Assembly: GCF_044704955.1 (NCBI RefSeq)
Contig: NW_027251311.1
Coordinates: 1 to 53,664, forward strand
Length of the DNA stretch: 53,664 nt
Source: Pristiophorus japonicus
Lineage: Eukaryota
Direction: 5' to 3'
Part shown: positions 3,599-47,290 of the stretch, one piece after another
Position numbering within the stretch: position 1 is the first letter of the stretch
Layout of the letters: each line of letters starts with the position of its first letter
Notes under the pieces: generated by a model
Told to the model about the DNA's origin: nothing
Database searches by the model: none
Seen by the model: only the letters and a program-made list of their open reading frames with translations
Program-made: the position numbers and the translations under genes

Positions 3599-3609
3599 TT
3601 ATTTATTGC
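3599..3609 (-). CDS. Candidate terminal coding exon (GNK-stop) followed by 3' UTR
   Basis: Strong pyrimidine-rich acceptor ttgtttttaattttgttcaaacag|GC AAT AAA TAA, phase-1 compatible, in unique sequence. Alternatives exist (an acceptor near 12607, or read-through of the 13099 donor). No clear AATAAA seen downstream. Confidence 0.4.
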
Positions 3610-7773: not shown

Positions 7774-8018
7774 TGTCATTTTGTAACTGCAATGTAACAC
7801 CACTGTATTACTGTATGCACTCAACTGAGATGCACACCTTGACCACAAGGGGTGAACTTGTGGGAGACACTCCTTACCTGATCACACAGGTATATAAAGG
7901 GAGGTCCCACACAGGGTCATCACTTCTGGAGTACTGAATAAAGAGTTCAGGTCACGTAGTAGCCTTGTCCCTGGAATGTGCCTCGTGTGGTTTCATGCAG
8001 TGGAGTAAGGACTTTACA
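7774..8018 (+). repeat. 5' LTR of the Gypsy element
   Basis: Runs TGTCATTTTG...GACTTTACA and contains TATATAAA and AATAAA. About 11 differences from the 3' LTR by manual count. Confidence 0.95.
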
Positions 8019-11000
8019 TTGGCGACGAGAAACGGGAACTCACGACCCACGAGAATGGCCACCGGTAACACAGATGAACGGTACTGTGTTGGGGAAGACT
8101 GGGACGATTTTGTTGAGAGGCTTCAGCAGAGTTTTGTGACGAAAGACTGGCTGGGGGATGCAGCGGCCGACAAGCGTCGGTCTCATCTCTTGACCAGCTG
8201 TGGACCAAAGACTTATGCGCTCATGAAGGACTTACTGGCACCTGAGAAGCCGTCGGACAAAACCTTTGAGGAGCTTAGCAAGTTGATTGGGGAGCACCTC
8301 AAGCTGGTGAGCAGCATACACATGGCTCGACACAGATTCTACACATTGTGAAGGGCAGAGCATACCGGACTTTGTAGTGGACCTCCGGCGTTTGACCAGT
8401 CTCTGTAAGTTCACAGATGCCTGCAGTGGGGAGATGCTAAGGGTCTTCTTTATTGAAGGTATCGGTCATGCGGGAATCTTTCACAAGTTAATTGAGACCA
8501 AGGACTTGACCTTGAAGCGGCGGCGTTGTTGGCTCAGACTTTCATGGCGGGGGAGGAAGAGACGAAAATGATTTACGCGCGCAATTCTGTCTCCAACACG
8601 GCGATGGATCAGGGAGTCAACGTCCTCCATGCTACTCAGAGCCCCGCAGGCAGGCAGGGGCAGTCCGACACTCCCCAGGCAGCAATAGACCCCAGAGTAG
8701 GACCTCAACAAAGACAATGGCAGGCTGAACGGACGTTCACGCCATCACAGTGGACAATGCAGCCCGGGATGGGGCCATTGACACCCACTAATAGGGTACT
8801 TAAGAGCAGTCAAAGAGACAGTCAGCACGGAATCACTGGCCACAGCCCTTTCGTCCCCAATAATGGAAACTTTAACTTGTGTTGGAGGTGTGGGGGAAAA
8901 CACTCAGCCAGATCTTGCAGGTTCCAACAGTTCGTTTGCAGAAACTGCAACCTCAGTGGCCATTTAGCCCGTCTGTGCAGAAAGCCTGCAACCAGACTGA
9001 TATTTGAGGCAGATGGACCAAAAGAGGGTTCTGTGAGGCAGGATGACTTTTGGGGCAAACCGATGGATGCCGAGGTTCAGCGGGTCCATGCGGTGAATAT
9101 TCACAGTTTATACACCAAAACGCCACCAATGATGATGAGGGTTTTGTTGAACAGCATCCCGGTACACATGGAGCTGGACACGGGGGCCAGCCAGTCACTC
9201 ATTAGCGTTCAGCAATTCGCGAAATTATGGCCACGCAAAGCCAGCAGACCCAAATTACAACTCATCGAGACGCAAAGAAATCATTCCGGTGCTAGGCAGT
9301 GCAATGTTGGCTGTCACACACAATGGCTCGGTGAACCGGCTGCCGCTCTGGATTGTCCCGGGAAATGGGCCCGCATTGTTGGGAGGAGCTGGTTAGCCGA
9401 GATGAACTGGAAATGGGGGGATGTTCACGCAATGTCATCCGTGGTCCTCATAAGTCCTACAACAATTCGAGTCACTGTTCCAACCTGGCGTCGGGACATT
9501 CAAAGGCACCAAAGTAGTGATACACATCACCCCAGACGCCAGGCCAGTGCACCACAAAGCCAGAGCGGTGCCGTATGTGATGCGGGAGAAAATTGAGAGC
9601 GAATTGGACCAGCTGTTGAGAGAGGGCATCGTCTCGCCTGTTGAATTCAGCGACTGGGTGAGCCCCATTGTCCCCGTTCTGAAAGCAGATGGTTCTGTCA
9701 GGATCTGTGGCGACTACAAGGCCACCATCAATCGGGTGTCCCTACAAGACCAATACCCGCTCCCAAGAGCGGAGGACCTCTTCGCCACGCTGGCAGGCAG
9801 CAAGCTGTTCACCAAGTTGGACCTCAATCAGCCTATATGACCCAGGAACTGGCCGATGAATCTGAACTGCTGATCACCATCACCACGCACAAGGGACTGT
9901 TTGCGTATAACAGGTGCCCGTTTGGCATTCGATCAGCGGCCGCGATCTTTCAACGCAACAGAGAAAGCCTGCTTAAATCAATTCCTGGCACGATTGTATT
10001 CCAGGACGACATCCTCATCACGGGTCGAGACACCGAGGAACACCTCCACAACCTGGAGGAGGTGCTACGCCGACTGGACCGGGTAGGCCTGCGACTCAAG
10101 AAATCTAAATGCATGTTTTTAGCTCCCGAGGTTGAGTTTCTGAGCAGGAGGGTTGCTGCAGATGGGATTTGGCCCACCGAATCCAAAACAGAGGCGATTC
10201 GACGAGCACCCAGGCCCTGCAACACATCGGAGCTGCGTTCATGCCTGTGACTGTTGAACTATTTCGGGAACTTTCTGCCGAACTTGAGCACGTTGTTGGA
10301 GCCGCTACACGTGCTCCTGCGTAAGGGCTGCAATTGGTTTTGGGGGGACTGTCAGGAATGTGCTTTCGATCGAGCGCGAAACCTACTGTGTTCTAACAAG
10401 CTGTTGACCCTGTATGACCCCTGTAAAAGTTTAGTTCTGACTTGTGATGCTTCGTCCTATGGGGTTGGGTGCGTGTTGCAGCAGGGTAATGCTGAGGGTC
10501 AGCTACAACCTGTGGCTTATGCCTCCAGGTCGCTCTCTCAAGCAGAAAGGGGGTATGGGATGGTTGAGAAGGAAGTGCTCGCATGTGTCTATGGTGTAAA
10601 GAAATGCATCAGTATCTCTTTGGTAGAAAGTTTGAATTGGAAATGGACCATAAGCCACTCACATCCCTGTTGTCAGACAGCAAGCCTGTCAATGCCAACG
10701 CATCAGCTCACATACAGCGATGGGCTCTCACGCTGGCTACCTATGACTACTCCATCCGGCACCGGCCCGGCACTGAAAATTGCGCTGACGCGCTCATCAG
10801 GCTTCCACTGGCCACCACTGAGGGGGCAGCTGAGCAAAGCGCTGAGATGGTCATGGCTGTCGATGCTTTCAGCAGTGCAGGCTCCCCCATCACAGCCCGC
10901 CAGATCAAAATCTGGACAAAGAGGGATCCCCTCCTATCCCTGATTAAGAAATGTGTCCTGACTGGGGATTGGGCGCCCGTTCCACAGGCGGATGGATGAG

Positions 11001-12209
11001 CTTTCTGTCCAAGCTGACTGCCTACTATGGGGCAGCCGGGTAGTTATGCCCCAGAAGGGCAGGGAGGCGTTCATCAGGGAACTCCACAGAGAGCACCCAG
11101 GCATTGTGATGATGAAGGCCATTGCCCGGTCACACGTTTGATGGCCTGAAATTGACTCAGACCTGCAACACTGTGTTTGAAGGTGCACGACATGTTCCCA
11201 GCTGGGTAATGCCCCCAGGGAGGCCCCACTCAGCCAGTGGCCCTGGCCCACCAAGCTATGGTCACGCATTCACGTTGACTACACGGGCCCGTTCATGGGT
11301 AAGATGTTCCTTATCGTTGTAGATGCGTACTCGAAATAGATCGACTGCATCATCCTGAATTCATGCACATCATCCACCACCATGGAAAGCCTACGTGCGA
11401 TCTTCGCAACCCATGGCTTGCCAGACATCCTGGTTAGTGACAATGGCCCGTGTTTCACGAGTTATGAATTCCGGCAATTTATGTCAGGCAATGGCATCAA
11501 CGATTTCAGGACTGCATCATTGAAGCCGGCCTCCAATGGCCAGGCGGAACGTGCGGTCTAAATCGTTAAGCAAGGTATGCTCAGGATTCAAGGACCCTCC
11601 CTACAATGCCACCTATCGCGCCTCCTGCTGGCCTATAGATCCCGCCCGCACTCGCTCACGGTGGTCCCGCCCGCGGAGTTACTAAAGAAACGGACACTCC
11701 AAACTCGGTTGTCCCTCATCCACCCAGTCCTGACTGACATAGTTGAGGGCAAGCGCAAGTCACAAAACGAGTACCATGACCGTAATTCGAGGGGGAGATG
11801 TATAGAAATAAATGATCCTGTATTCGTCCTCAATCACGCAATGGGACCCAAATGGCTCGAGGGTACTGTAATAGACAAAGAAGGGAATAGAGTCAACTCA
11901 ACAATGGCCAGATATGCCGAAAGCATCTGGACCAAGTAAAGAAAAGGTTCAGCAATGACACGCAGGAAGCTGAAGAAGACCATGAGATGGAGCTCACACT
12001 ACCGCCAGTGAATGTGCAACAAAAACAATCAGAAGAATGCACAGTCCCTGAGGTCAGCCCGGACAGGCCGGAATCACCACAGGGGACAGACACTCACGTC
12101 AGTGTTCAACAACCAGAGCCCCAACTGCAGCGCTCCACGAGGGAGCGTAGACCACCTGAAAGACTGAACCTATGATCCCAATAAGACTTTGGGGGTGGGG
12201 GGAAGGTGA

Positions 12210-12454
12210 TGTCATGTTTGTAACTACAATGTAACACCACTGTATTACTGTATGCACTCAACTGAGATGCACACCTTGACCACAAGGGGTGAACTTGTGG
12301 GAGACACTCCTTACCTGATCACTCAGGTATATAAAGGGAGGTCCCACGCAGGGTCATCAATTCTGGATACTAAATAAAGAGTTCAGGTCACGTAGTGGCC
12401 TTGTCCCTGGAAGGTGCCCCGTGTGGTTTCATGCAGTAGAGTAAGGACTTTACA
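12210..12454 (+). repeat. 3' LTR of the Gypsy element
   Basis: Direct repeat of 7774-8018, preceded by a polypurine tract. Confidence 0.95.
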
Positions 12455-13098: not shown

Positions 13099-13141
13099 CT
13101 TTAAGCTCACTGTATATGGACTGATCCGGTTGCTGTAATGC
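13099..13141 (-). CDS. Receptor cytoplasmic exon 3 (second half of ITAM)
   Basis: Acceptor ctctgttccctgttag|GCA and donor AAAG|gtatgt; 43 nt, phase 0 to 1. Translation: ALQQPDQSIYSELK. Joined to the previous exon it gives YMAL-QQPDQSI-YSEL. Confidence 0.82.
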
Positions 13142-13243
13142 CTAACAGGGAACAGAGCAATGATAGAATCAGCAATCTAGTAACACGTGCCCAATGAAGG
13201 GTTATTTGGAATGTATTAACGTTCTGAATTTGGAGTTTCTTAC

Positions 13244-13285
13244 CATGTACGTGGCATTTGGATCCTCCAGACGATCTCCGGAGTT
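13244..13285 (-). CDS. Receptor cytoplasmic exon 2 (first half of ITAM)
   Basis: Acceptor tattttgttgtag|AAC and donor ATG|gtaaga; 42 nt, phase 0/0. Translation: NSGDRLEDPNATYM. Confidence 0.82.
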
Positions 13286-22124: not shown

Positions 22125-22198
22125 CTGTGTGTCTCCTGCAGAAAAAACATTTTCATAATCAGCAGTTGTGTTCTGATCAGCAGCAGTTCCCGATGGTG
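22125..22198 (-). CDS. Receptor cytoplasmic exon 1 (YENV motif)
   Basis: Acceptor tttattttacag|CA and donor CAG|gtgagt; 74 nt, phase 1 to 0. Translation: APSGTAADQNTTADYENVFSAGDTQ. Confidence 0.85.
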
Positions 22199-22364: not shown

Positions 22365-22484
22365 CGGACTGTTTTTTTCCAAAAAGTGTGTGTCTGATGA
22401 GTAAAATGCCTCCAGTAACAACAGTGACTCCCAGCACAGCACCCAGAATGATCCAGACCAGGCTTGACTTCACAACTTTTGTTT
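22365..22484 (-). CDS. Receptor transmembrane exon
   Basis: Acceptor tttcctttcacag|AA and donor TCCG|gtatgt; 120 nt, phase 1/1, in frame with V3. Translation: ETKVVKSSLVWIILGAVLGVTVVTGGILLIRHTLFGKKQS. A ~22 aa hydrophobic stretch followed by basic stop-transfer residues. Confidence 0.9.
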
Positions 22485-25203: not shown

Positions 25204-25551
25204 CGGTTACATTGAGCTGGGTCCCTGCTCCATAGATGTAGCTCCACACACTGCAGCTGTAGGCAGCAGTATCACTGAGGGACACATTCACGATGGTCAG
25301 AATGTAACTGTTACTGATGATGTTCCTGGAAGGCAGAAAACGGTCGTGGATACCCCGGGACCTGGTAATGGTGCCATTCACAAACTGGCTCATCACCCAC
25401 TCGCTGTTGTTCCCGGGTCGCTGGCAGTGCCAGTGGACATCAGTGTCACTCACACTGGCATTGTACATGGCACATTGTAACTGCACGGTTTCACCCTCTG
25501 GGACCTTGCTGACTGTTGGATGCTGAACAAGGACCGGATCAGCTAATGGAT
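25204..25551 (-). CDS. Receptor exon V3: germline-encoded VJ-type Ig domain
   Basis: Acceptor tttcccacgtacag|AT and donor ACCG|gtaagt; 348 nt, phase 1/1. Translation: PLADPVLVQHPTVSKVPEGETVQLQCAMYNASVSDTDVHWHCQRPGNNSEWVMSQFVNGTITRSRGIHDRFLPSRNIISNSYILTIVNVSLSDTAAYSCSVWSYIYGAGTQLNVT. About 55% identical to V2 by manual count. Confidence 0.95.
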
Positions 25552-25724: not shown

Positions 25725-26553
25725 ATGACTCAGTGGCTGCACTCTTGCATCGGGGTCAGAAGGTTATGGGTTTATGTCCCACTCCAGAGACTTCAGCACA
25801 TATCTAGACATTCCAGTGCAGTATGGAGTGCAGTAGGCTGACACTCCCAGTGCAGTGCTGAGGGAGTGCTGCACTGTCCGAGGTGCCAGCTTTTGAATGA
25901 GTTGTTAAACCGAGGCCCCATCTGCTCTCTCAAGTGGATGTAAAAGATCCCACGGCACTATTTTGAAGAAGAGCAGGGGAGTTATCCCCAGTGCCCTGGC
26001 CATTATCACATTGCTGTTTATGGGAGCTTGCTGTGTGCAAAGTGGCTGCCTTGTTTCCTACATTACAACAGTGTCGACATTTCAACAAGTACTTCATTGG
26101 CTGTAAAGTGCTTTGGGACATCATGAGGTCATGAAAAGCACTGTAGAAATTCAAATCTTTCTTTCTTGGAGTCAGAGTGTCGTGGGTTCAAGTCCCACTC
26201 CAGAGATCCCAGCACATATCTCGACACTCCAGTGCAGTATGGAGGGTGTGCTGCACTGTTGGAGGTGCTGTTATTGAAATGAGATGTCAAAACAAGATTG
26301 GCATCTCAGTTGGATGTAAAAGATCTCACGGCATTATTCGAAGATTAGCAGGGGAGTTCTTCCAGTGTCCAGGCCAACATTTATACCTAAAACACATGAT
26401 CTGGCTATTTATTTAATCGCTGTTTGTGGGACCTTGTGTGTTTCCTAAATTACAACAGTAACTACACTTCACATGTACTTCATTGGCTTATGTAAAGTGC
26501 TTTGGGACATCCCGAGACTGTGAAAGGTGCTATAGAAGTGCAGGTTCTTTCTC
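25725..26553 (+). mobile_element. Two tandem tRNA-derived DeuSINEs (SacSINE1-like), ~25725-26167 and ~26168-26553
   Basis: tRNA-like head (gtcaga..ggttcaagtcccactccagag), Deu-like core (gttaaaccgaggcccc...ggatgtaaaagatccc...gcactattt) and 3' end gtaaagtgctttgggacat...tctttctt. Family recognised from memory, not by search. Confidence 0.75.
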
Positions 26554-28716
26554 TTAGTGTCTATCCCTGGTGCCCCCAAAAGGCCAATGGAAGACTGGGA
26601 CCAGGCATATCCGGGTCCAAGAATAACTTGCAGCCCTCCCATGCACTCCCAGCAGAGTTATAGCAGCAGAGTGGCCGAGAGCTGTGGATAAGAACATAAG
26701 AAGTAGGAGCAGGAGTAGGCCATTGGCTCCTCGAGCCTGCTCCGTCATTCAATAAGATCATGGCCAATCCGATCATGGACTCAGCTCCACTTTCCTGCCC
26801 ATCTCCTGAATCAACCTGGTGAACCTTCTCTGAACAGCCTCCAATGCAAGTATATCCTTCCGTAAATACGGAGACTAAAACTGCACGCAGTACTCCAGGT
26901 GTGGCCTCACCAATACCCTGTGTAGAAGTGTGACGATAGAATTAGATTAGTTCTCACTGGAGCAGGGATATTTCATTGAGAGAGGACATGAAGCAGGTTT
27001 TTTAAATGCTGAAAATAGACTGGGATATAGAGGGCATAATTTCAAAGTTTGCAGATGAGGAGGAAAGCAGCAGCCTCCAGGAGGACTGGTGAAATGAGCA
27101 GATACATGGCAGATGCAATTTAATGCAGAGAAGTGTGAAGTGATGCATTTTGGAAGGAAAAATGAGGAATGGTAATATGAACTAAATGGTGCAATTATAA
27201 AGTGGGTGCAGGAACAGGGAGCCCTGGGGGTTCACATACACAAATCTTCATAGTGGCAGGACAAGTTGATGAGGCTTTAAAAGAGCTAAAAAACCCTGGG
27301 TTTATAAATCGAGGTGTAGAGTACAAAAGCAAGGAAGTGATGCTAAACCTCCATACATCACTGGTTAGGCCTCAGCTGGACTATTGTGTCCAATTCTGGG
27401 CACCACACTTTAGGAACGATGTCAAGGCCTTGGCGAGGGTGCAGAGGAGATTTACTAGAATGAGACCAGAGATGAGGGACTTCAGTTATGTGGAGAGACT
27501 GAAGAAGTTAGGATTGTTCTCCTTAGAGCAGTGAAGTTACAGGGGGATTTAATCGAGGTGCCAAAATTATGAGGGGTTTTGCTGGAGTAAATGAGGATGA
27601 AATGTTTCCAGTGTGGGGAGGATCAGTAACCAGAGCACACAGATTGAAGATAATTAACAAAAGTACCAGGGGGGAGGGGGGAAAGAGATGAGAATTCCTT
27701 TTTACGCAGCGAGTTGCTGTGATCTGGAATGTGCTGCCTGAAAGGGCGGTGGAAGATTCAATAGTAACTTTCAAAATGGAATTGGATAAATACTTGAAAA
27801 GGAATAAAATTGCAGGGCTGTGGGGAAAGAGCAGGGGCAGTGGGACTAATTGGATCGTTCTTTCAAAGAGCCAGCACGGGCACGATGGGCCGAATGGCCT
27901 CTTTCTGTGCTGTAAGATTATATAAAAGCTTGGATAATACAAGTGTAAACTTTATCAAAGTTTGATTCAAACAGAAGGAAGTCGGAGCATAAAACTGGTC
28001 AATGGGACTGTGGAGCGAGAACAGCTTGTATTGTGAGACAGCAAGTACCTAAAATATACAGCGCATGGTGTTTGTCTCAATGTTATACCAGTGATGGTCA
28101 TCCCTGCCCTACTTCAATAACTGCACTTGGTGCGAGGGGGAACACATCCTCTGCCCAGAACATCGCAAATCCAGCCAAACAATTTTTATAGAATTAACCA
28201 CAAATCATTATTTCAGGTGAATTTATAAAGAATGAACAAATCCTGTAGGGAGCGGAAAGGAGCAGCATAAAAATCAACTTAGGAATTAAATCGAGGGAAA
28301 GGGAGGGATATGTGGGTGGGGGAGGGGGAGGTGCGGGGACATGGGGGGGGGGGGCATGGGTGGGAGGGGATGTGGGGGGGAGGGGGATGTGGATCGGGGA
28401 GGGGGGATGTGGGTGGGGGGGACGTGGGGGAGGGGTGATAAGGGTGGGGGAGGGACGTGGGCGAGGGGGAGGGGTGATGTGGGTGGGAGGACGGGACGTG
28501 GGGGAGGGGTGATGTGGGTGGGGAAGGGGACGTGGGGGAGGGGTGATGTGGGTGGGGGAGGGACGTGGGAGGGGGAGGGGTGATGTGGATGGGGGAGGGG
28601 ACGTGGGGGAGGGGTGATGTGGATGGGGGAGGGGACGTGGGGGAGGGGGAGATCAGCACAGCCCGGGTTCAGCTTTCCCGATGTGAAACTTTGAATGGGC
28701 CGCGCCGCCCGTTAAA
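26334..28716 (+). repeat. Segmental direct repeat, copy A (SINE half, CR1 fragments, unique DNA, G-rich tract)
   Basis: Near-identical to 30084-33942 apart from the G-rich tract. The ORF track shows an identical 110-aa ORF at 27202 and 30946. Confidence 0.95.
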
Positions 28717-29268: not shown

Positions 29269-29613
29269 TGGTTACATTGAGCTGGGTTCCGTTCCCGCTG
29301 ATATTGCCCCACACTTTACAGTAATAGGCGGCAGTGTCACTGGGCTGCACGTCTGTGACTGTCAGAATGAAGCTGTTATTGGAGGTGTCTCTGGAAGGCT
29401 GGAGACGGTCAGTGGAACCTGGGCTCCCTCGTGTGCTGCCACTTGCCTCATGTGTTAAAACCCACTCCGTATCTTGCCCCGGTAGTTGCCGGTACCAGTG
29501 GACATCAGTGTCACTCACTCTGGCGTTCCGCATGGTGCACTGTAACCGTGCCGTGTGACCCTCTGTGACACGTTCCAGGCTCGGAGACTGGGTCAGGACA
29601 GGGACAACTGCAC
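29269..29613 (-). CDS. Receptor exon V2: germline-encoded VJ-type Ig domain
   Basis: Acceptor ttttcccattaaag|GT and donor ACCA|gtaagt; 345 nt, phase 1/1. Translation: AVVPVLTQSPSLERVTEGHTARLQCTMRNARVSDTDVHWYRQLPGQDTEWVLTHEASGSTRGSPGSTDRLQPSRDTSNNSFILTVTDVQPSDTAAYYCKVWGNISGNGTQLNVT. Shows the WYRQ, DTAAYYC and GNGTQLNV motifs. Confidence 0.95.
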
Positions 29614-30083: not shown

Positions 30084-33000
30084 TTATTCGAAGATTAGCA
30101 GGGGAGTTCTCTTAGTGTCCAGTCAACATTTATACCTAAAACACATGATCTGGCTATTTATTTATTCGCTGTTTGTGGGACCTTGTGTGTTTCCTAAATT
30201 ACAACAGTGACTGCACTTCACATGTACTTCATTGGCTTATGTAAAGTGCTTTGGGACATCCCGAGACTGTGAAAGGTGCTATAGAAGTGCAGGTTCTTTC
30301 TCTTAGTCTCTATCCCTGGTGCCCCCAAAAGGCCAATGGAAGACTGGGACCAGGCATATCCGGGTCCAAGAATAACTTGCAGCCCTCCCATGCACTCCCG
30401 GCAGAGTTATAGCAGCAGAGTGGCTGAGAGCTGTGGATAAGAACATAAGAAGTAGGAGCAGGAGTAGGCCATTTGGCCCCTCGAGCCTGCTCCGCCATTC
30501 AATAAGATCATGGCTAATCCGATCATGGACTCAGCTCCACTTTCCTGCCCATCTCCAGAATCAACCTGGTGAACCTTCTCTGAACAGCCTCCAATGCAAG
30601 TATATCCTGAATATGGAGACTAAAACTGCACGCAGTGCTCCAGGTGTGGCCTCACCATACCCTGTGTAGAAGTGTGACGATAGAATTAGATTAGTTATCA
30701 CTGGAGCAGGGATATTTCATTGAGAAAGGACATGAAGCAGGTATTTTAAATGCTGAAAATAGACTGGGGTATAGAGGGCATAATTTCAAAGTTTGCAGAT
30801 GAGGAGGAAAGCAGCAGCCTCCAGGAGGACTGGTGAAATGGGCAGATACATGGCAGATGCAATTTAATGCAGAGAAGTGTGAAGTGATGCATTTTGGAAG
30901 GAAAAATGAGGAACAGTAATATGAACTAAATGGTGCAATTATAAAGTGGGTGCAGGAACAGGGAGCCCTGGGGGTTCACATACACAAATCTTCATAGTGG
31001 CAGGACAAGTTGATGAGGCTTTAAAAGAGCTAAAAAACCCTGGGTTTATAAATCGAGGTGTAGAGTACAAAAGCAAGGAAGTGATGCTAAACCTCCATAC
31101 ATCACTGGTTAGGCCTCAGCTGGACTATTGTGTCCAATTCTGGGCACCACACTTTAGGAACGATGTCAAGGCCTTGGCGAGGGTGCAGAGGAGATTTACT
31201 AGAATGAGACCAGAGATGAGGGACTTCAGTTATGTGGAGAGACTGAAGAAGTTAGGATTGTTCTCCTTAGAGCAGTGAAGTTACAGGGGGATTTAATCAA
31301 GGTGTTTAAAATTCTGAGGGGTTTTGCTGGAGTAAATGAGGATGAAATGTTTCCAGTGTGGGGAGGATCAGTAACCAGAGCACACAGATTGAAGATAATT
31401 AACAAAAGTACCAGGGGGGAGGGGGGAAAGAGATGAGAATTCCTTTTTACGCAGCGAGTTGCTGTGATCTGGAATGTGCTGCCTGAAAGGGCGGTGGAAG
31501 ATTCAATAGTAACTTTCAAAATGGAATTGGATAAATACTTGAAAAGGAATAAAATTGCAGGGCTGTGGGGAAAGAGCAGGGGCAGTGGGACTAATTGGAT
31601 CGTTCTTTCAAAGAGCCAGCACGGGCACGATGGGCCGAATGGCCTCTTTCTGTGCTGTAAGATTATATAAAAGCTTGGATAATACAAGTGTAAACTTTAT
31701 CAAAGTTTGATTCAAACAGAAGGAAGTCGGAGCATAAAACTGGTCAATGGGACTGTGGAGCGAGAACAGCTTGTATTGTGAGACAGCAAGTATCTAAAAT
31801 ATACAGCGCATGGTGTTTGTCTCAATGTTATACCAGTGATGGTCATCCCTGCCCTACTTCAATAACTGCACTTGGTGCGAGGGGGAACACATCCTCTGCC
31901 CAGAACATCGCAAATCCAGCCAAACAATTTTTATAGAATTAACCACAAATCATTATTTCAGGTGAATTTATAAAGAATGAACAAATCCTGTAGGGAGCGG
32001 AAAGGAGCAGCATAAAAATCAACTTAGGAATTAAATCGAGGGTAAGGGAGGGATATGTGAGTGGGAGAGGGGAGGGGATGTGTGGGGACATGGGGGAGGG
32101 GACGTGGGGGAGGGGGGATGTGGGTGGGGGAGGGGACGTGGGGGAGGGGGATTTGGATGGGGAGGGGACGTGGGGGAGGGGGATGTGGGGGGGGAAGGGA
32201 GATGTGGGTGGGGGAGGGGACATGGAGGAGGGGTGATGTGGGGGAGGAGGAGGGGTGATGTGGATGGGGTAGGGGACGTGGGGGAGGGGAGGGGACGTGG
32301 GGGAGGGGGGTTGTGGGCGGGGAGGGGGGAAGGGAGATGTGGGTGGGGGAGGGGACGTGGGGGAGGGGGAGGGGTGATGTGGATGGGGGAGGGGACGTGG
32401 GGGAGGCGAGGGGACGTGGGGAAGGGGAGATCTGGATGGGAGAGGGGATGTAGGGGAGGGGGAGGGGATGTGGGGAGGGGAAGGGACATAGGGGAGTTGG
32501 AGGGGACGTGGGGGAGGGGAAGGGGACGAGGGGAAGGGGACGTGGGGGAGGGGTGATGTGGGGGAGGGGACGTGGGGAGGGGTGATGTGGGTGGGGGAGG
32601 GGACGTGGGGGAGGGGACGTGTGGGAGGGGTGATGTGGATGGGGAAGAGGACGTGGGGGAGTGGGAGGTGTGCTGTGGGTGGGGGGGTTGCGTGGGGGAG
32701 GATGAGAGGACGTGGGGGAGGGGGAGGTGTGCTGTGGATGGGGGAGGGGACGTGGGGGGGAGGGGACGTGGGGGAGGATGAGAGGACGTGGGGGACGGGG
32801 AGGTGTGCTGTGGGTGGGGGGTTGCGTGGGGGAGGATGAGAGGACGTGGGGGAGGGGGAGGTGTGCTGTGGATGGGGGGTGGACGTGGGGGAGGGGGAGT
32901 GGTTGATGTGGGTGGGGGGGACGTGGGGGAGGATGAGAGGACGTGGGGGAGAGGGAGATGTGCTGTGGATGGGGGAGGGGACGTGGGGGAGGGGGAGGGG

Positions 33001-33942
33001 TGCTGTGGATGGGGGGGGGGCGTGGGGGAGGATGAGAGGACGTGGGGGAGAGGGAGGTGTCCTGTGGATGGGGGGGGACGTGGGGGAGGGGGAGGGGTGA
33101 TGTGGGTGGGGGGGGGCGTGGGTGTGGATGAGAGGACGTGGGGGAGGCGGAGGTGTGCTGTGGATGGGGGGGCATGGGGAGGGGGAGGGGTGCTGTGGGT
33201 GGGGGGGGACGTGGGGGAGGGGGAGGGGGAGGGGTTGAAGTGTGTGGGGGGAGGATGAGAGGACGTGGGGGAGGGGGAGTGGTGATGTGGATGGGGGGGC
33301 CGTGGTGGAGGATGAGAGGACGTGGGGGAGGGGGAGGTGTGCTGTGGATGGGTGGGGACGTGGGGGAGGGGGAGGGGTGATGTGGGTGGGGGGGGACGTG
33401 GGTGAGGATGAGAGGACGTGGGGGTGGGGGAGGCGGAGATGTGCTGTGGATGGGGGGGGCATGGGGGAGGGGGAGGGGTGCTGTGGGTGGGGGGGGGGCG
33501 TGGGGGAGGATGAGAGGACGTGGGGGAGGGGGAGGGGGGATGTGGGTGGGGGAGGGTACGTGGGGGAGGGGGAGGGGGGGTGTGGGTGGGGGAGGGTACG
33601 TGGGGGAGGGGGAGGGGGGATGTGGGCGGGGGAGGGTACGTGGGGGAGGGGGAGGGGGGATGTGGGTGGGGGAGGGTACGTGGGGGAGGGGGGATGTGGG
33701 TGGGGGAGGGTAGGTGGGGGAGGGGGAGGGGGGATGTGGGTGGGGGAGGGTACGTGGGGGAGGGAGGGGGAGGGGGGATGTGGGTGGGGGAGGGTACGTG
33801 GGGGAGGGGGAGGTGTGTTGTGGATGTGCGGGGGGGGGGGGGCGGGGGGGAGGGGGAGATCAGCACAGCCCGGGATCAGCTTTCCTGATGTGAAAGTTTG
33901 AGACATGCCTGAAACTTTGAATGGGCCGCGCCGCCCGTTAAA
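30084..33942 (+). repeat. Segmental direct repeat, copy B, with an expanded G-rich tract
   Basis: Starts ttattcgaagattagc as copy A does (offset 3750) and ends gggccgcgccgcccgttaaa as copy A does. Confidence 0.95.
32040..33858. repeat. G-rich tandem array (GGACGTGGGGGAGG-type)
   Basis: Expanded homologue of the ~350-bp tract at ~28296-28651. Confidence 0.9.
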
Positions 33943-35450
33943 ATTCTCTGGACTCTGGGGAGGTACCAGCGGATTGGAAAGCAGCTAATGTAACGCCTCT
34001 GTTTAAAAAAGGGGGCAGGCAAAAGGCAGGTAACGATAGGCCGGTTAGTTTAACATCTGTAGTGGGGAAAATGCTTGAAACTATCATAAAGGAAGAAATA
34101 GCGGGACATCGAGATAGGAATAGTGCAATCAAGCAGACGCAGCATGGATTCATGAAGGGGAAATCATGTTTAACTAACTTACTGGAATTCTTTGAGGATA
34201 TAACGAGCATGGTGGATAGAGGTGTACCGATGGATGTGGTGTATTTAGATTTCCAAAAGGCATGCGATAAGGTGCCACACAAAAGGTTACTGCAGAAGAT
34301 AAAGGTACGCGGAGTCAGAGGAAATGTATTAGCATGGATAGAGAATTGGCTGGCTAACACAAAGCAGAGAGTCGGGATAAATGGGTCCTTTTCGGGTTGG
34401 AAATCAGTGGTTAGTGGTGTGCCACATGGATCAGTGCTGGGACCACAACTGTTTACAATATACATAGATGACCTGGAAGAGGGTACAGAGTGTAGTGCAA
34501 CAAAATTTGCAGATGACACAAAGATTAGTGGGAAAGCGGGTTGTGTAGAGGACTCAGAGAGGCTGCAAGGAGATTTGGATAGGTTAAGCGAATGGGCTAA
34601 GGTTTGGCAGATGGAATACAATGTCGGAAAGTGTGAGGTCATCCACCTTGGGGGAAAAAAAACAGTAAAAGGGAATATTATTTGAATGGGGAGAAATTAC
34701 AACATGCTGAGGTGCAGAGGGACCTGGGGGTCCTTGTGCATGAAACTCTTTTTGGTCCTTGTGCATGAATCCCAAAAAAAGGTTAGTTTGCAGGTGCAGC
34801 AGGTAATCAGGAAGGCAAATGGAATGTTGGCCTTCATTGCGAGAGGGATGGAGTACAAAAGCAGGGAGGTCCTGCTGCAACTGTACAGGGTATTGGTGAG
34901 GCCGGACCTGGAGTACTGCTTGCAGTTTTGGTCACCTTACTTAAGGAGGGATACACTAGCTTTGGAGTGGGTACAGAGACGATTCACTTGGCTGATTCCG
35001 GAGATGAGGGGGTTACCTTTTGATGATAGATTGAGTAGACTGGGTCTTTACTCGTTGGAGTTCAGAAGGATGAGGGATAATCTTTCTCGAAACATTTAAA
35101 ATAATGAAAGGGATAGACAAGATAGAGGCAGAGAGGTTGATTCCACTAGTCGGGTAGACTCGAATTAAAGGGCACAGCCTCAAAATACGGGGGAGCCAAT
35201 TTAAAAATGAGTTGAGAAGGAATTTCTTCTCCCAGAGGGTTGTGAATCTGTGGAATTCTCTGGCCAGGGAAGCAGTTGAGACGAGCTCATTGAATGTATT
35301 CAAATCACAGATAGATACATTTTTAACCAATAAGGGAATTAAGGGTGACAGGGAGCGGGTGGGTAAGTGCAGCTGAGTCCACGGCCAGATCAGCCATGAT
35401 CTTTTTGAATGGCGGAGCAGGCTCGAGGGGCCAGATGGCCTACTCCTGTT
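33941..35450 (+). mobile_element. 5'-truncated CR1 LINE (RT and 3' UTR)
   Basis: Peptides QHGFMKGKSCLTNL, YLDFQKACDKVPH, GVPHGSVLGP and KFADDTK, with a 3' UTR ending ggcctactcctgttc. Confidence 0.92.
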
Positions 35451-38400
35451 CGAGACCCACTAAAGTCTGTGTGTACCAGGTACATTCCAGACCCACGACA
35501 GTCTGTGTGTACTGGGTACATTCCAGACCCACTACAATCTGTGTGTATTGGGCACATTCCAGACCCACTACAGCCTGTGTGTATTGGGTACATTCCAGAC
35601 CCACTACAGTCTGTGTGTACTGGGCACATTCCAGACCAACTACAGTCCGTGTGTATTGGGTACATTCCAGACCCACTACAGTTTGTGTGTATTGGGTACA
35701 TTCCAGACCCACTACAGTCTGTGTGTACTGGGTACATTCCAGACCCACTACAGTCTGTGTGTACTAGTACATTCCAGACCCATGACAGTCTGTGTATATT
35801 GGGTACATTCCAGACCCACTACAGTCTGTGTGTATTGGGCACATTCAAGACCCACTACAGTCTGTGTGTATTGGGTACATTCCAGACCCACTACAGTCCG
35901 TGTGTATTGGGTACATTCCAGACCCACTACAGTCTGTGTGTATTGGGCACATTCCAGACCAATTGCAGTCTGTGTGTATTGGGTACATTCCAGACCCACT
36001 ACAGTCTGTGTGTATTGGGTACATTCCAGACCCATTACAGTCTCTGTGTATTGGGTACGTTCCAGACCCATTATAGTCTGTGTGTATTGGGTATGTTCCA
36101 GACCCACTACAATCTGTGTGTATTGGGTATGTTCCAGACCCACTACAATCTGTGTGTATTGGGTACATTCCAGACCAACTACAGTGTGTGTGTATTGGGT
36201 ATATTTCAGACCCATTACAGTCTGTGTGTATTGTGTACATTCCAGACCCACGACAGTCTGTGTGTATTGGGTACATTCCAGACCCACTACAGTCTGTGTG
36301 CATTGGGTACATTCCAGACCCACGACAGTCTGTGTGTACTGGGTACATTCCAGACCCACTACAGTCTGTGTGCACTGGGTACATTCCAGACCGACTACAG
36401 TCTGTGTGTACTGGGTACATTCCAGACACACTACAGTCTGTGTGTACTGGGTACATTCCAGACCAATTACAGTCTGTGTGTACTGGGTACATTCCAGACC
36501 CACTACAGTCTGTGTGTACTGGGTACATTCCAGACCCACTACAGTCTGTGTGTACTGGGTACATTCCAGACCCACTACAGTCTGTGTGTACTGGGTACAT
36601 TCCAGACCAACTACAGTCTTTTTGTATTGGGTACATTCCAGACCCACTACAGTCCGTGTGTATTGGGTACATTCCAGACCCACTACAGTCTGTGTGTACT
36701 GGGCACATTCCAGACCCACTACAGTCTGCGTGTATTGGCTACATTCCAGACCCACTACAGTCCGTGTGTATTGGGTACATTCCAGACCCACTACAGTCTG
36801 TGTGTATTGGGTACATTCCTGACCCACTACAGTCTGTGTGTATTGGGCACATTCCAGACACACGACAGTTTGTGTGTATTGGGTATATTCCACACCCACT
36901 GCAATCTGTGTGTATTGTGTACATTCCAGATCCACTACAGTCTGCGTGTATTGGGTACATTTCAGACCCACTACAGTCTGTGTGTACTGGGTACATTCCA
37001 GACCCACTACAGTCTGTGTGTACTGGGTACATTCCAGACCAACTACAGTCTGTATGTATTGGGTACATTCCAGACCCACTACAGTCCGTGTGTATTGGGT
37101 ACATTCCAGACCCACTTCAGTCTGTGTGTACTGGGCACATTCCAGACCAACTACAGTCTGTGTGTATTGGGTACATTCCAGACCCACGACAGTCCGTGTG
37201 TATTGGGTACATTCCAGACCCACTACAGTCTGTGTGTATTGGGTACATTCCAGACCCACTACAGTCTGTGTGTATTGGGCACATACCAGACGCACTACAG
37301 TCTGTGTGTATTGGGTATATTCCAGACCCATTACAGTCTGTGTGTATTGTGTACATTCCAGACCCACTACAGTCTGTGTGTATTGGGCACATTCCAGACG
37401 CACTACAGTCTGTGTGTATTGGGTACATCCCAGACCCACTACAGTCTGTGTGCATTGGGTACATTCCAGACCCACGACAGTCTGTGTGTATTGGGTACAT
37501 TCCCGACCCACTACAGTCTGTGTGTATTGGGCACATTCCAGACCCACTACAGTCTGTGTGTATTGGGCACATTCCAGACCCACTACAGTCTGTGTGCATT
37601 GGGTACATTCCAGACCCACGACAGTCTGTGTGTACTGGGTACATTCCAGACCCACTACAGTCTGTGTGCACTGGGTACATTCCAGACCCACTACAGTCTG
37701 TGTGTACTGGGTACATTCCAGACCCACTACAGTCCGTGTGTATTGGGTACATTCCAGACCCACTACAGTCTGTGTGTACTGGGCACATTCCAGACCCACT
37801 ACAGTCTGCGTGTATTGGGTACATTCCAGACCCACTACAGTCCGTGTGTATTGTGTACATTCCAGATCCACTACAGTCTGCGTGTATTGGGTACATTCCA
37901 GACCCACTACAGTCTGTGTGTACTGGGTACATTCCAGACCCACTACAGTCTGTGTGTACTGGGTACATTCCAGACCAACTACAGTCTGTATGTATTGGGT
38001 ACATTCCAGACCCACTACAGTCCGTGTGTATTGGGTACATTCCAGACCCACTTCAGTCTGTGTGTACTGGGCACATTCCAGACCAACTACAGTCTGTGTG
38101 TATTGGGTACATTCCAGACCCACGACAGTCCGTGTGTATTGGGTATATTCCAGACCCACTACAGTCTGTGTGTATTGGGTACATTCCAGACCCACTACAG
38201 TCTGTGTGTATTGGGCACATTCCAGACACACGACAGTTTGTGTGTATTGGGTACATTCCAGACCCATTACAGTCTGTGTGTATTGTGTACATTCCAGACC
38301 CACTACAGTCTGTGTGTATTGGGTACATTCCAGACCCACTACAGTCTGTGTGTATTGGGTACATTCCAGACCCATTGCAGTCTGTGTGTATTGTGTACAT

Positions 38401-41400
38401 TCCAGACCCACTACAGTCTGTGTGTATTGGGTACATTCCAGACCCACTACAGTCTGTGTGTATTGGGTACATTCCAGACCCACTACAGTCTGTGTGTATT
38501 GTGTACATTCCAGACCCACTACATTTTGTGTGTATTGGGTACATTCCAGACCCACTACAGTCTGTGTGTATTGGGCACATTCCAGACGCACTACAGTCTG
38601 TGTGTATTGGGTACATTCCAGACGCACTACAGTCTGTGTGTATTGGGTACATTCCAGACCCACTACAGTCTGTGTGTATTGGGCACATTCCAGACGCACT
38701 ACAGTCTGTGTGTACTGGGTACATTCCAGACCCACTACAGTCTGTGTGCACTGGGTACATTCCAGACCCACTACAGTCTGTGTGTACTGGGTACATTCCA
38801 GACCCACTACAGTCTGTGTGTACTGGGTACATTCCAGACCAACTACAGTCTGTGTGTACTGGGTACATTCCAGACCCACTACAGTCTGTGTGTACTGGGT
38901 ATATTCCAGACCCACTACAGTCTGTGTGTACTGGGTACATTCCAGACCCACTACAGTCTGTGTGTACTAGTACATTCCAGACCCATGACAGTCTGTGTAT
39001 ATTGGGTACATTCCAGACCCACTACAGTCTGTGTGTATTGGGCACATTCAAGACCCACTACAGTCTGTGTGTATTGGGTACATTCCAGACCCACTACAGT
39101 CCGTGTGTATTGGGTACATTCCAGACCCACTACAGTCTGTGTGTATTGGGCACATTCCAGACCAATTGCAGTCTGTGTGTATTGGGTACATTCCAGACCC
39201 ACTAAAGTCTGTGTGCATTGGATACATTCCAGACCCACGACAGTCTGTGTGTATTGGGTACATTCCAGACCTACTATAGTCTGTTTGTATTGGGTCTATT
39301 CCAGACCCACTGCAGTATGTGTGTATTGGGTACATTCCCGACCCACTACAGTCCGTGTGTATTGGGTACATTCCAGACCCACGACAGTCTGTGTGTATTG
39401 GGTACATTCCCGACCCACTACAGTCTGTGTGTATTGGGCACATTCCAGACCCACTACAGTCTGTGTGCATTGGGTACATTCCAGACCCACGACAGTCTGT
39501 GTGTACTGGGTACATTCCAGACCCACTACAGTCTGTGTGCACTGGGTACATTCCAGACCCACTACAGTCTGTGTGTACTGGGTACATTCCAGACCCACTA
39601 CAGTCCGTGTGTATTGGGTACATTCCAGACCCACTACAGTCTGTGTGTACTGGGCACATTCCAGACCCACTACAGTCTGCGTGTATTGGGTACATTCCAG
39701 ACCCACTACAGTCCGTGTGTATTGTGTACATTCCAGATCCACTACAGTCTGCGTGTATTGGGTACATTCCAGACCCACTACAGTCTGTGTGTACTGGGTA
39801 CATTCCAGACCCACTACAGTCTGTGTGTACTGGGTACATTCCAGACCAACTACAGTCTGTATGTATTGGGTACATTCCAGACCCACTACAGTCCGTGTGT
39901 ATTGGGTACATTCCAGACCCACTTCAGTCTGTGTGTACTGGGCACATTCCAGACCAACTACAGTCTGTGTGTATTGGGTACATTCCAGACCCACGACAGT
40001 CCGTGTGTATTGGGTATATTCCAGACCCACTACAGTCTGTGTGTATTGGGTACATTCCAGACCCACTACAGTCTGTGTGTATTGGGCACATTCCAGACAC
40101 ACGACAGTTTGTGTGTATTGGGTACATTCCAGACCCATTACAGTCTGTGTGTATTGTGTACATTCCAGACCCACTACAGTCTGTGTGTATTGGGTACATT
40201 CCAGACCCACTACAGTCTGTGTGTATTGGGTACATTCCAGACCCATTGCAGTCTGTGTGTATTGTGTACATTCCAGACCCACTACAGTCTGTGTGTATTG
40301 GGTACATTCCAGACCCACTACAGTCTGTGTGTATTGGGTACATTCCAGACCCACTACAGTCTGTGTGTATTGTGTACATTCCAGACCCACTACATTTTGT
40401 GTGTATTGGGTACATTCCAGACCCACTACAGTCTGTGTGTATTGGGCACATTCCAGACGCACTACAGTCTGTGTGTATTGGGTACATTCCAGACGCACTA
40501 CAGTCTGTGTGTATTGGGTACATTCCAGACCCACTACAGTCTGTGTGTATTGGGCACATTCCAGACGCACTACAGTCTGTGTGTACTGGGTACATTCCAG
40601 ACCCACTACAGTCTGTGTGCACTGGGTACATTCCAGACCCACTACAGTCTGTGTGTACTGGGTACATTCCAGACCCACTACAGTCTGTGTGTACTGGGTA
40701 CATTCCAGACCAACTACAGTCTGTGTGTACTGGGTACATTCCAGACCCACTACAGTCTGTGTGTACTGGGTATATTCCAGACCCACTACAGTCTGTGTGT
40801 ACTGGGTACATTCCAGACCCACTACAGTCTGTGTGTACTGGGTACATTCCAGACCAACTACAGTCTTTTTGTATTGGGTACATTCCAGACCCACTACAGT
40901 CCGTGTGTATTGGGTACATTCCAGACCCACTACAGTCTGTGTGTACTGGGCACATTCCAGACCCACTACAGTCTGCGTGTATTGGGTACATTCCAGACCC
41001 ACTACAGTCCGTGTGTATTGGGTACATTCCAGACCCACTACAGTCTGTGTGTATTGGGTACATTCCAGACCCACTACAGTCTGTGTGTATTGGGCACATT
41101 CCAGACACACGACAGTTTGTGTGTATTGGGTATATTCCACACCCACTGCAGTCTGTGTGTATTGTGTACATTCCAGACCCACTACAGTCTGTGTGTATTG
41201 GGTTCATTCCAGACCAACTACAGTCTGTATGTATTGGGTACATTCCAGACCCACTACAGTCTGTGTGTATTGTGTACATTCCAGACCCACTACATTTTGT
41301 GTGTATTGGGTACATTCCAGACCCACTACAGTCTGTGTGTATTGGGCACATTCCAGACGCACTACAGTCTGTGTGTATTGGGTACATTCCAGACGCACTA

Positions 41401-44400
41401 CAGTCTGTGTGTATTGGGTACATTCCAGACCCACTACAGTCTGTGTGTATTGGGCACATTCCAGACGCACTACAGTCTGTGTGTACTGGGTACATTCCAG
41501 ACCCACTACAGTCTGTGTGCACTGGGTACATTCCAGACCCACTACAGTCTGTGTGTACTGGGTACATTCCAGACCCACTACAGTCTGTGTGTACTGGGTA
41601 CATTCCAGACCAACTACAGTCTGTGTGTACTGGGTACATTCCAGACCCAGTACAGTCTGTGTGTACTGGGTATATTCCAGACCCACTACAGTCTGTGTGT
41701 ACTGGGTACATTCCAGACCCACTACAGTCTGTGTGTACTAGTACATTCCAGACCCATGACAGTCTGTGTATATTGGGTACATTCCAGACCCACTACAGTC
41801 TGTGTGTATTGGGCACATTCAAGACCCACTACAGTCTGTGTGTATTGGGTACATTCCAGACCCACTACAGTCCGTGTGTATTGGGTACATTCCAGACCCA
41901 CTACAGTCTGTGTGTATTGGGCACATTCCAGACCAATTGCAGTCTGTGTGTATTGGGTACATTCCAGACCCACTAAAGTCTGTGTGCATTGGATACATTC
42001 CAGACCCACGACAGTCTGTGTGTATTGGGTACATTCCAGACCTACTATAGTCTGTTTGTATTGGGTCTATTCCAGACCCACTGCAGTATGTGTGTATTGG
42101 GTACATTCCCGACCCACTACAGTCCGTGTGTATTGGGTACATTCCAGACCCACGACAGTCTGTGTGTATTGGGTACATTCCCGACCCACTACAGTCTGTG
42201 TGTATTGGGCACATTCCAGACCCACTACAGTCTGTGTGCATTGGGTACATTCCAGACCCACGACAGTCTGTGTGTACTGGGTACATTCCAGACCCACTAC
42301 AGTCTGTGTGCACTGGGTACATTCCAGACCCACTACAGTCTGTGTGTACTGGGTACATTCCAGACCCACTACAGTCCGTGTGTATTGGGTACATTCCAGA
42401 CCCACTACAGTCTGTGTGTACTGGGCACATTCCAGACCCACTACAGTCTGCGTGTATTGGGTACATTCCAGACCCACTACAGTCCGTGTGTATTGTGTAC
42501 ATTCCAGATCCACTACAGTCTGCGTGTACTGGGTACATTCCAGACCCACTACAGTCTGTGTGTACTGGGTACATTCCAGACCAACTACAGTCTGTATGTA
42601 TTGGGTACATTCCAGACCCACTACAGTCCGTGTGTATTGGGTACATTCCAGACCCACTTCAGTCTGTGTGTACTGGGCACATTCCAGACCAACTACAGTC
42701 TGTGTGTATTGGGTACATTCCAGACCCACGACAGTCCGTGTGTATTGGGTATATTCCAGACCCACTACAGTCTGTGTGTATTGGGTACATTCCAGACCCA
42801 CTACAGTCTGTGTGTATTGGGCACATTCCAGACACACGACAGTTTGTGTGTATTGGGTACATTCCAGACCCATTACAGTCTGTGTGTATTGTGTACATTC
42901 CAGACCCACTACAGTCTGTGTGTATTGGGTACATTCCAGACCCACTACAGTCTGTGTGTATTGGGTACATTCCAGACCCATTGCAGTCTGTGTGTATTGT
43001 GTACATTCCAGACCCACTACAGTCTGTGTGTATTGGGTACATTCCAGACCCACTACAGTCTGTGTGTATTGGGTACATTCCAGACCCACTACAGTCTGTG
43101 TGTATTGTGTACATTCCAGACCCACTACATTTTGTGTGTATTGGGTACATTCCAGACCCACTACAGTCTGTGTGTATTGGGCACATTCCAGACGCACTAC
43201 AGTCTGTGTGTATTGGGTACATTCCAGACGCACTACAGTCTGTGTGTATTGGGTACATTCCAGACCCACTACAGTCTGTGTGTATTGGGCACATTCCAGA
43301 CGCACTACAGTCTGTGTGTACTGGGTACATTCCAGACCCACTACAGTCTGTGTGCACTGGGTACATTCCAGACCCACTACAGTCTGTGTGTACTGGGTAC
43401 ATTCCAGACCCACTACAGTCTGTGTGTACTGGGTACATTCCAGACCAACTACAGTCTGTGTGTACTGGGTACATTCCAGACCCACTACAGTCTGTGTGTA
43501 CTGGGTACATTCCAGACCCACTACAGTCTGTGTGTACTGGGTACATTCCAGACCAACTACAGTCTTTTTGTATTGGGTACATTCCAGACCCACTACAGTC
43601 CGTGTGTATTGGGTACATTCCAGACCCACTACAGTCTGTGTGTACTGGGCACATTCCAGACCCACTACAGTCTGCGTGTATTGGGTACATTCCAGACCCA
43701 CTACAGTCCGTGTGTATTGGGTACATTCCAGACCCACTACAGTCTGTGTGTATTGGGTACATTCCAGACCCACTACAGTCTGTGTGTATTGGGCACATTC
43801 CAGACACACGACAGTTTGTGTGTATTGGGTATATTCCACACCCACTGCAGTCTGTGTGTATTGTGTACATTCCAGACCCACTACAGTCTGTGTGTATTGG
43901 GTTCATTCCAGACCAACTACAGTCTGTATGTATTGGGTACATTCCAGACCCACTACAGTCAGTGTGTATTGGGTACATTCCAGACCCACTACAGTCTGTG
44001 TGTACTGGGCACATTCCAGACCAACTACAGTCTGTATGTATTGGGTACATTCCAGACCCACGACAGTCCGTGTGTATTGGGTACATTCCAGACCCACTAC
44101 AGTCTGTGTGTATTGGGTACATTCCAGACCCACTACAGTCTGTGTGTATTGGGCACATTCCAGACACACGACAGTCTGTGTGTATTGGGTATATTCCACA
44201 CCCACTGCAGTCTGTGTGTATTGTGTACATTCCAGACCCACTACAGTCTGTGTGTATTGGGTACATTCCAGACCCACTACAGTCTGTGTGTATTGGGCAC
44301 ATTCCAGACGCACTACAGTCTGTGTGTATTGGGTACATTCCAGACCCACTACAGTCTGTGTGCATTGGGTACATTCCAGACCCACGACAGTCTGTGTGTA

Positions 44401-46394: not shown

Positions 46395-46936
46395 GGCCCA
46401 CGGACGAGTTTCTCACGGGACTCTATTATTAAATATTTTCTGGCTTTCAACTCCAAAACGAGACGCACTACTTTGCCGCCCAGCCATTCTGAAAGCCGAT
46501 TGCACATTCCTGAATTACATTTGCAGCTGAAGGATGGTTTATTGCAGCTTGGAAAGGGTCGAGGGGTCATTTGTTTGCATTGATGAGTGCAGATTTAGTC
46601 ACTAAGAGATGCATTGTTTTATATATATACCCTGTCAATATCCTGATTTAACCAGGTCGGTCACCATTGTTCCTATTACTGCACTTTTCCCTCAACATGT
46701 ATTTTCCCGTTGAATCCTTTGTGTGAGGGTTTGTCCCACCATGTGCTCACACGCTTTTGTTCAATTAAAAACAAATGGTGTTTGTCCCAGATTTCACCTT
46801 CCATTCTTTTTTCAGAAATTCCACTCAGTGTTGTTACTGTAAAAGTGACAATGTTGTATAACATTTACTTCCACATGAGATGTTGGTATTGTAACATTAT
46901 TAGATATAAAACCAATATAATGTACAAAGCACTTAC

Positions 46937-47290
46937 TGGTTACATTCAGCCGGGTTCCATTTCCATAGATTGTTCCCCAAATACCACAGATATAGACCGC
47001 GCTGTCTCTGCGCTCCACGCCTCTGATGGTCAGAATGCAGCTGTTACTGGCAACATCTCTGGAAAGCTGAAACCGCTCAGAGACACCGTGTGATCGGTAA
47101 ATCCTGCCACCTACATAATGAGTAAATATTATGTGTTTCCTATCCTGTGAGAGGTACCAGTGTACAGTATATTTATCCACACGGTCATTCACATTGCTGC
47201 TCTCCAGGGTACACCGAAACTGCACCGTCCCACCCTCGGGCACCGTCACAACTTCTGGGGACTGGATAAGAACCGGACTTGCCTTTCGAC
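46937..47290 (-). CDS. Receptor exon V1: germline-encoded VJ-type Ig domain
   Basis: Acceptor ctattcacag|GT and donor ACCA|gtaagt; 354 nt, phase 1/1. Translation: RKASPVLIQSPEVVTVPEGGTVQFRCTLESSNVNDRVDKYTVHWYLSQDRKHIIFTHYVGGRIYRSHGVSERFQLSRDVASNSCILTIRGVERRDSAVYICGIWGTIYGNGTRLNVT. Has the B-strand Cys, C-strand Trp, DSAVYxC and a J-like GxGTxLxV G strand. Confidence 0.93.

Follow-up and report, generated by a model that had tools for sequence, protein, structure and literature searches.

The window, the 53,664-nt stretch of sawshark (Pristiophorus japonicus) DNA that was analysed, carries on its minus strand a receptor gene with the layout V1-V2-V3-transmembrane, near the 3' end of which lie two small exons, A and B. 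Exon V1 (46937..47290, 354 nt) encodes a V domain of germline VJ type that varies more among the sawshark paralogs than any other domain, and is followed by the VJ-type exons V2 (29269..29613, 345 nt), which is 99% identical in an activating and an inhibitory paralog of the sawshark, and V3 (25204..25551, 348 nt), all three of phase 1-1. Downstream are a transmembrane exon (22365..22484, 120 nt, phase 1-1) whose helix has no charged residue and cytoplasmic exon 1 (22125..22198, 74 nt, phase 1-0), which holds a YENV motif of the YxN, Grb2 type. Exon A (13244..13285; 42 nt, 14 codons, phase 0-0, preceded by tag and followed by gtaaga) ends in Tyr-Met, an intron of 102 nt (13142..13243, phase 0, GT-AG) lies inside the first YxxL, and exon B (13099..13141; 43 nt, phase 0-1, preceded by tag and followed by gtatgt) begins with Ala-Leu and supplies the rest of the first YxxL, a 7-residue spacer and the second YxxL. 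Combined, the two exons encode N-x-x-YMAL-x7-YSEL, with the Asn at -3. The coding part of the last exon (3599..3609) reads Gly-Asn-Lys-stop, equals the end of the annotated sawshark paralog P0061 and is followed by a presumed 3' UTR.

Joined at their canonical splice sites, the eight predicted exons give 445 codons in one open frame that runs to a single stop at its end, and the last 93 residues are identical to those of P0061 (93/93). The V2 domain shares 95-99% identity with annotated Pristiophorus japonicus proteins, and the V1 of the window copy differs from the V1 of P0061. The exon and intron lengths, the intron phase and the YxxL-x7-YxxL motif given in the original prediction were confirmed by the splice sites, the frame and the match to P0061; the peptide quoted there covered only the last eight of the 14 codons of exon A, with the motif itself correct, and its distance of ~8.8 kb to the previous exon was measured as an intron of 8,839 nt, the upstream exon ending at 22125. 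No leader exon was found within the window, in which 6.4 kb of contig precede V1; two other copies have the leader 13-14 kb upstream of V1.

Several repeats were observed around these exons. An LTR-retrotransposon-like element, recognized by eye from two similar terminal repeats, occupies window positions 7780-12450, 650 nt downstream of exon B within the last intron, and a 32-nt satellite is repeated over about 11 kb of the V1-V2 intron (35450-46400). Additionally, the V2 exon is flanked on both sides by a duplicated block of ~2 kb (26400-28700 and 30100-33900, by eye), which may be the trace of a V-exon duplication.

Support for the exon pair and its splicing

The chance level of the exon pair was assessed by resampling the window in 500-nt blocks with the local dinucleotide content kept. 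With a loose pattern, defined as any Tyr-x donor plus an x-L/I..YxxL/I acceptor within 1 kb, one or more pairs turned up in 99 of 200 resamples; therefore, the motif by itself is not beyond chance. A strict pattern, defined after the motif was seen, gave a pair in 1 of 500 resamples. At the level of sequence, the decisive support comes from the gene frame, the identity to P0061 and the relatives, not from the motif pattern. The Pfam ITAM model (PF02189) gave no match on P0061, P0075 or P0021, and a search of the genome with the Pfam ITAM model returned two weak matches, one of them the last exon of CD247 and neither in the receptor family.

Among the public sequencing runs, 14 were guessed to be RNA or were of unspecified kind, and no RNA record was listed for the V3 exon; the contigs came from four runs, none recorded as RNA. 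A comparison of a 16.7-kb region with the runs gave matches dominated by repeats. Contigs from these runs cover precisely the V2 exon, and one X9 contig joins V2 to V3 exactly where the two exons end and begin. All four contig runs gave depth in the bin that includes exons A and B, with one contig stopping at 13244, the donor of exon A; the joint between A and B was not among the joints listed from the four runs, and the splicing of A to B therefore rests on annotation. All four sawshark models with this transmembrane exon continue into exon A, and two of them include exon B while the other two skip it, with loss of the second tyrosine. An acceptor near 21983, which would lead to TI-stop, is present in the sequence and is used by none of the four models; splicing of cytoplasmic exon 1 to this nearer acceptor, named in the original prediction as evidence that would speak against the ITAM tail, therefore fails as a refutation. 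In the models P0065 and P0256, from the copy at C9:6.24 Mb, exon B is left out and the last exon is translated in a different frame; these models finish with a long, partly hydrophobic tail that has a single tyrosine module.

Relatives, tail types and other copies

The set of family proteins examined contained 110 members, 87 of which have a membrane helix. In 22 of the 87, representing 14 species of sharks and rays, an ITAM was found; its spacer is 7 residues long in all 22, and 19 have a YxN motif upstream of the ITAM. According to regular expressions, 44 of the 87 have ITIM/ITSM tails (26 full, 18 partial) and 21 have other or shortened tails. The helices of 86 of the 87 lack a charged core residue, and one is charged. 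A further tail class, with YxN-type motifs and neither ITAM nor ITIM, was noted in P0070, P0072, P0079, P0080, P0081 and P0088. Conservation in related sharks, the absence of which had been named as grounds for giving up the claim, was borne out, the exons being kept in other sharks and rays. Outside the sawshark, where exon borders were read from gene models, the same borders recur: the 14-residue exon A is skipped in frame in C. punctatum P0032 as against P0113, S. canicula P0043 has a tandem duplication of it, and the end of exon B in H. perlo P0016 is of phase 1. A description of the family in print was not found in the open-access literature searched, which lacks most subscription journals, and this paired-receptor family of cartilaginous fish is apparently unnamed so far.

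Paired-receptor traits were seen both in the ectodomains and in the locus. Activating and inhibitory tails are present on highly similar ectodomains: when the V2 of an activating member was compared with that of an inhibitory member of the same species, in six pairs picked by hand, identity was 99, 97, 95, 98, 78 and 76%, and between activating members across species it was 55-78%. Among the sawshark paralogs, V1 differs mainly in CDR1- and CDR2-like stretches. Genes of both types are clustered, occurring together on G000:C9 at 5.7-6.2 Mb and again on C3961. In the sawshark assembly, matches were found at 4 places for the activating transmembrane region and at 18 each for the inhibitory transmembrane exon and the ITIM/ITSM exon, figures that are not copy numbers because many of the matched places lie on unplaced contigs.

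Two inhibitory sawshark genes were mapped, and in each the ITIM and ITSM share a single terminal exon, entered in the same phase, 0, as exon A. Given this common entry phase of the ITAM cassette and the ITIM exon, the tails are probably exchangeable between paralogs. In a FastTree tree of the transmembrane and juxtamembrane region (52 columns), ITAM tails fall on both sides of a starred split, and four carpet-shark models and one catshark model place the ITAM cassette behind an inhibitory-type helix. The occurrence of the cassette behind two transmembrane lineages therefore points to tail swapping; combined, the 52-column tree and the gene models, which can fuse neighbouring genes, suggest that tails have been exchanged within the family.

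Matches to the ITAM region were found at 25 places in the genome: five with both exons, one with exon B and part of the intron, and 19 with exon B alone. One of the five two-exon copies (G000:C9:5720238-5720506, L011; 5.72 Mb) has a stop at the third codon of exon B. The places with exon B alone include G000:C1816:755059, C9:5931046, C2932:461036, C4060:59242, C3833:232383 and C2571:563491 (L001-L006), with 13 more. In the six of these 19 copies that were examined, exon B lies ~2.9 kb behind a V2 exon, and neither the membrane exon nor cytoplasmic exon 1 nor exon A found a match between the two; a LINE-like element makes up the gap in the one copy that was read throughout. The splice sites of exon B are intact in the copies with exon B alone, and splicing of V2 to the lone exon B is predicted to give an out-of-frame reading with a stop after 11 residues. 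Such copies could therefore yield a secreted two-V protein, a possible decoy. The exon structure of the activating tail, its agreement with CD247 and CD3E-like introns of the same genome, the phase compatibility of the ITAM and ITIM/ITSM tails and the copies with exon B alone are additions of the present analysis.

The split ITAM, its proposed function and alternative explanations

According to the accessible portion of PMC4536121, a classical ITAM is coded for by a pair of exons whose border falls within the first tyrosine module and has the consensus D/E/NxxYxxL/I-x7-YxxL/I. Exons A and B show this consensus and this layout, with the border at phase 0; the negatively charged residue in the membrane helix that is a trait of signalling subunits is absent. 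Within the sawshark genome, CD247 was located at C11, 77.27-77.30 Mb, and a CD3E-like gene, so labelled from a Pfam match, an acidic helix and its tail, at C11, 219.88 Mb. The three ITAMs of CD247 and the one ITAM of the CD3E-like gene are all cut between Tyr-x and x-Leu/Ile at phase 0, and the statement that the intron lies at the classical ITAM position was thus upheld in four of four ITAMs of this genome, as well as in the available text of PMC4536121. Searches for FCER1G, TYROBP, CD79A and CD3G/D in the sawshark genome did not locate these genes and gave only CD247 and the CD3E-like gene.

The same layout is known from receptors. As described in the sections available of PMC2832619, PMC2110893 and PMC5112662, the ITAM-bearing CEACAM receptors (CEACAM3/4, dog CEACAM23-28 and Xenopus Ceacams) have a receptor-intrinsic ITAM with YxxL-x7 spacing and four cytoplasmic exons, with a phase-0 split of the first YxxL that is characteristic of receptor-borne ITAMs, a conserved upstream YxN motif in Xenopus, and ITIM/ITSM partners with homogenised ectodomains. 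The hagfish receptors NICIR3/ALA, in the part of PMC3634110 that is accessible, are germline Ig V-domain receptors with their own tyrosine motifs, NICIR3 joining V-C domains to two ITAMs. Since CEACAM receptors and hagfish NICIR3 both have it, an ITAM tail on an Ig receptor is a known and possibly ancient arrangement. The phase-0 intron is the ordinary layout of ITAM genes, a feature already known, and its shared position does not name a donor gene.

Classical ITAM subunits (CD3, CD247, FcR-gamma, DAP12 and CD79a/b) agree with the sawshark receptor in the consensus and in the two-exon border within the first tyrosine module, as far as PMC4536121 could be consulted, whereas the sawshark receptor has no acidic helix residue and has a large putative ligand-binding ectodomain as well as inhibitory paralogs. 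From the sequence features assembled here, exons A and B very probably constitute the ITAM of a shark type-I receptor, likely the activating member of a paired-receptor family, in which an uncharged helix connects three V domains to a YxN motif and a single ITAM. Because the helix is uncharged, no adaptor chain would be needed, and the receptor most likely signals on its own. In ITAM signalling, a Src-family kinase phosphorylates both tyrosines, after which Syk or ZAP70 docks via tandem SH2 domains. For the sawshark receptor, a ligand at the variable V1 domain would cluster the receptor, a Src-family kinase would then phosphorylate both ITAM tyrosines, and Syk or ZAP70 would dock on the ITAM through its tandem SH2 domains. 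Additionally, phosphorylated YENV (pYENV) would recruit a Grb2-family adaptor, and the inhibitory paralogs would bring in SHP-1/2 against the same ligands. By analogy, the sawshark receptor likely works like the CEACAM paired receptors.

The tail could alternatively be an ITAM-like endocytic or Grb2-docking tail that internalises ligand or tunes signals without a Syk/ZAP70 cascade, as some CEACAM tails of this layout are described as ITAM-like or endocytic in the CEACAM papers cited above, as family members with only YxN motifs exist and as two models skip exon B. Against this stands the retention of both YxxL/I halves and of the exact 7-residue spacer in all 22 ITAM members, from sharks and rays, with which tandem-SH2 binding should fit better than a single endocytic motif, and a purely endocytic or Grb2-docking role is regarded as quite improbable. 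It is also unlikely that the window copy is a non-functional fragment or an assembly duplicate of an otherwise real family. The lack of a leader exon on the contig would agree with a fragment, broken copies do occur (the stop in exon B at C9:5.72 Mb and the 19 places with exon B alone), and the ITAM region is 100% identical on the window and on contigs C3961 and C691, so that the window copy may be an assembly duplicate or a haplotype. However, its eight exons are intact and in one open frame with canonical splice sites, its V1 is distinct from that of P0061, and the contig ends well short of the 13-14 kb at which the leader is found in other copies.

The origin of the ITAM exons bears on a further alternative, in which they were copied from a signalling-adaptor gene (CD3, CD247, FcR-gamma or DAP12) and shuffled onto a V-domain receptor. 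The intron position and phase shared with the four CD247 and CD3E-like ITAMs of this genome favour such a copy, and entry at phase 0 makes the cassette portable, the cassette having apparently moved within the family. However, the same split, the four cytoplasmic exons and the upstream YxN are published for CEACAM ITAM receptors (sections available of the papers cited above), and therefore a receptor lineage can also be the source of the module. A search with the tail region gave 5 matches among 57 candidates, all of them family members, with no non-family protein resembling the tail among these 57; by eye, exon B has no clear likeness to the CD247 or CD3E exons beyond the motif residues, and the exons are too short for assignment of a donor gene. 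A copy from an adaptor gene is thus possible, though doubtful. Even with a receptor-type tail as the source, a distant shared ancestor of all split ITAMs would still be likely. The original prediction had proposed shared ancestry with the classical ITAM exon module followed by shuffling onto a V-domain receptor: the canonical ITAM and the classical intron site held, and the split, which also occurs in CEACAM receptors, is no proof of shuffling from an adaptor gene onto a V receptor; hagfish NICIR3 already combines V-C domains with ITAMs. The paired-receptor family and the sigma-2-like V domains were no part of that prediction.

V-domain affinity and significance of the family

The shark family probably stands apart from the CEACAM receptors in its ectodomain, which consists of two to eight V domains of VJ type, arranged in tandem and most similar to Ig light-chain V; no CEACAM name occurred among the 107 matches of a protein search. 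Each V exon comprises a V and a J-like G strand, and no recombination signal was found inside the V exons. The closest outside relative of the family V domains is the V of Ig sigma-2 light chains (identity is 48% with the horn shark sigma-2 chain and 50% with a light chain of the white shark). In the protein search, the white shark light chain was the only non-family antigen-receptor match among the 107, and the nearest outside matches of the family profile were shark light chains, in a cluster that holds the horn shark Igsigma-2 chain. Conversely, when the horn shark sigma-2 chain was searched against the sawshark genome, family V2 exons were best (48%, E 5e-26) among the 150 of 1521 candidates that were scored. 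The family differs from Ig sigma-2 in its tandem V exons, membrane helix, signalling tail and very short CDR3; it consists of V-set domains, helix and tail only and, unlike sigma-2 light chains, has no C1 constant domain. A close sigma-2 ortholog was not found in the sawshark assembly among these 150 of 1521 candidates; a pair of divergent V genes of sigma-2-like type, one of them split and the other joined, was noted at C23:3.51 Mb and 8.90 Mb (L090, L051).

Phylogenetic placement was based on a V tree of 61 rows, with V regions cut after the second cysteine, which omits two chimaera rows that failed the trimming rule and most redundant family rows. The outgroups were matches of the family profile and sequences from this genome, without UrIg, PRARP, NKp30, CD8 or VpreB, and the Ig, TCR and NITR labels were assigned by eye, except for sigma-2 in the case of P0245. 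The family falls with sigma-2 and sigma-2-like V in one starred clade (95/86), apart from kappa, lambda, sigma, IgH and TCR. Two other placements, as a sister lineage (p 0.31) or outside every Ig and TCR V (p 0.064), were not rejected by the AU test. NFAM1 and teleost NITRs are germline Ig V-domain receptors bearing their own tyrosine motifs; NITR-like V domains fall outside the family clade in the V tree, and the Pfam NFAM1 Ig model matched P0021 only, below the cut-off. A germline VJ-type V exon at G000:C19:78206497-78206757 (L095) groups with teleost NITR-like V (95/82) and is possibly a shark NITR relative. A search of solved structures, which had engineered antibody constructs among the 60 matches listed, did not help the placement.

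Germline-joined V-J is common in sigma-2 genes (sigma-cart, type I, NS5), according to the accessible text of PMC5985310 and PMC4279169, and recycling of a joined light-chain exon is therefore plausible. It is tentatively proposed, at somewhat less than even confidence, that the paired-receptor family of sharks and rays, with V-domain relatives in chimaeras, arose from an Ig sigma-2 VJ exon joined in the germline, which was copied in tandem and linked to exchangeable phase-0 tails (ITAM or ITIM/ITSM), and that in the sawshark the family expanded to dozens of gene units, including copies without a membrane exon that could be secreted decoys.

As far as its genes and proteins indicate, the family is CEACAM-like paired-receptor logic on antibody-like V domains, and the split intron itself is not new. 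The gene would represent the activating arm of a paired-receptor family whose candidate ligand-binding domains resemble pre-joined antibody light-chain V exons. If these V domains came from Ig sigma-2, a piece of an adaptive-immune gene would have been turned into an innate receptor; if they are a sister lineage, the family would offer a present-day model for VJ receptors that do not rearrange and carry an ITAM themselves, a type of precursor that has been proposed for antigen receptors (PMC10751288, in the portion available). A 2014 survey did not find homologs of the Fc-receptor and LRC families in cartilaginous fish, according to the accessible part of PMC4016189. Whichever origin applies to the V domains, a defined activating/inhibitory pair would be available for testing in cartilaginous fish.
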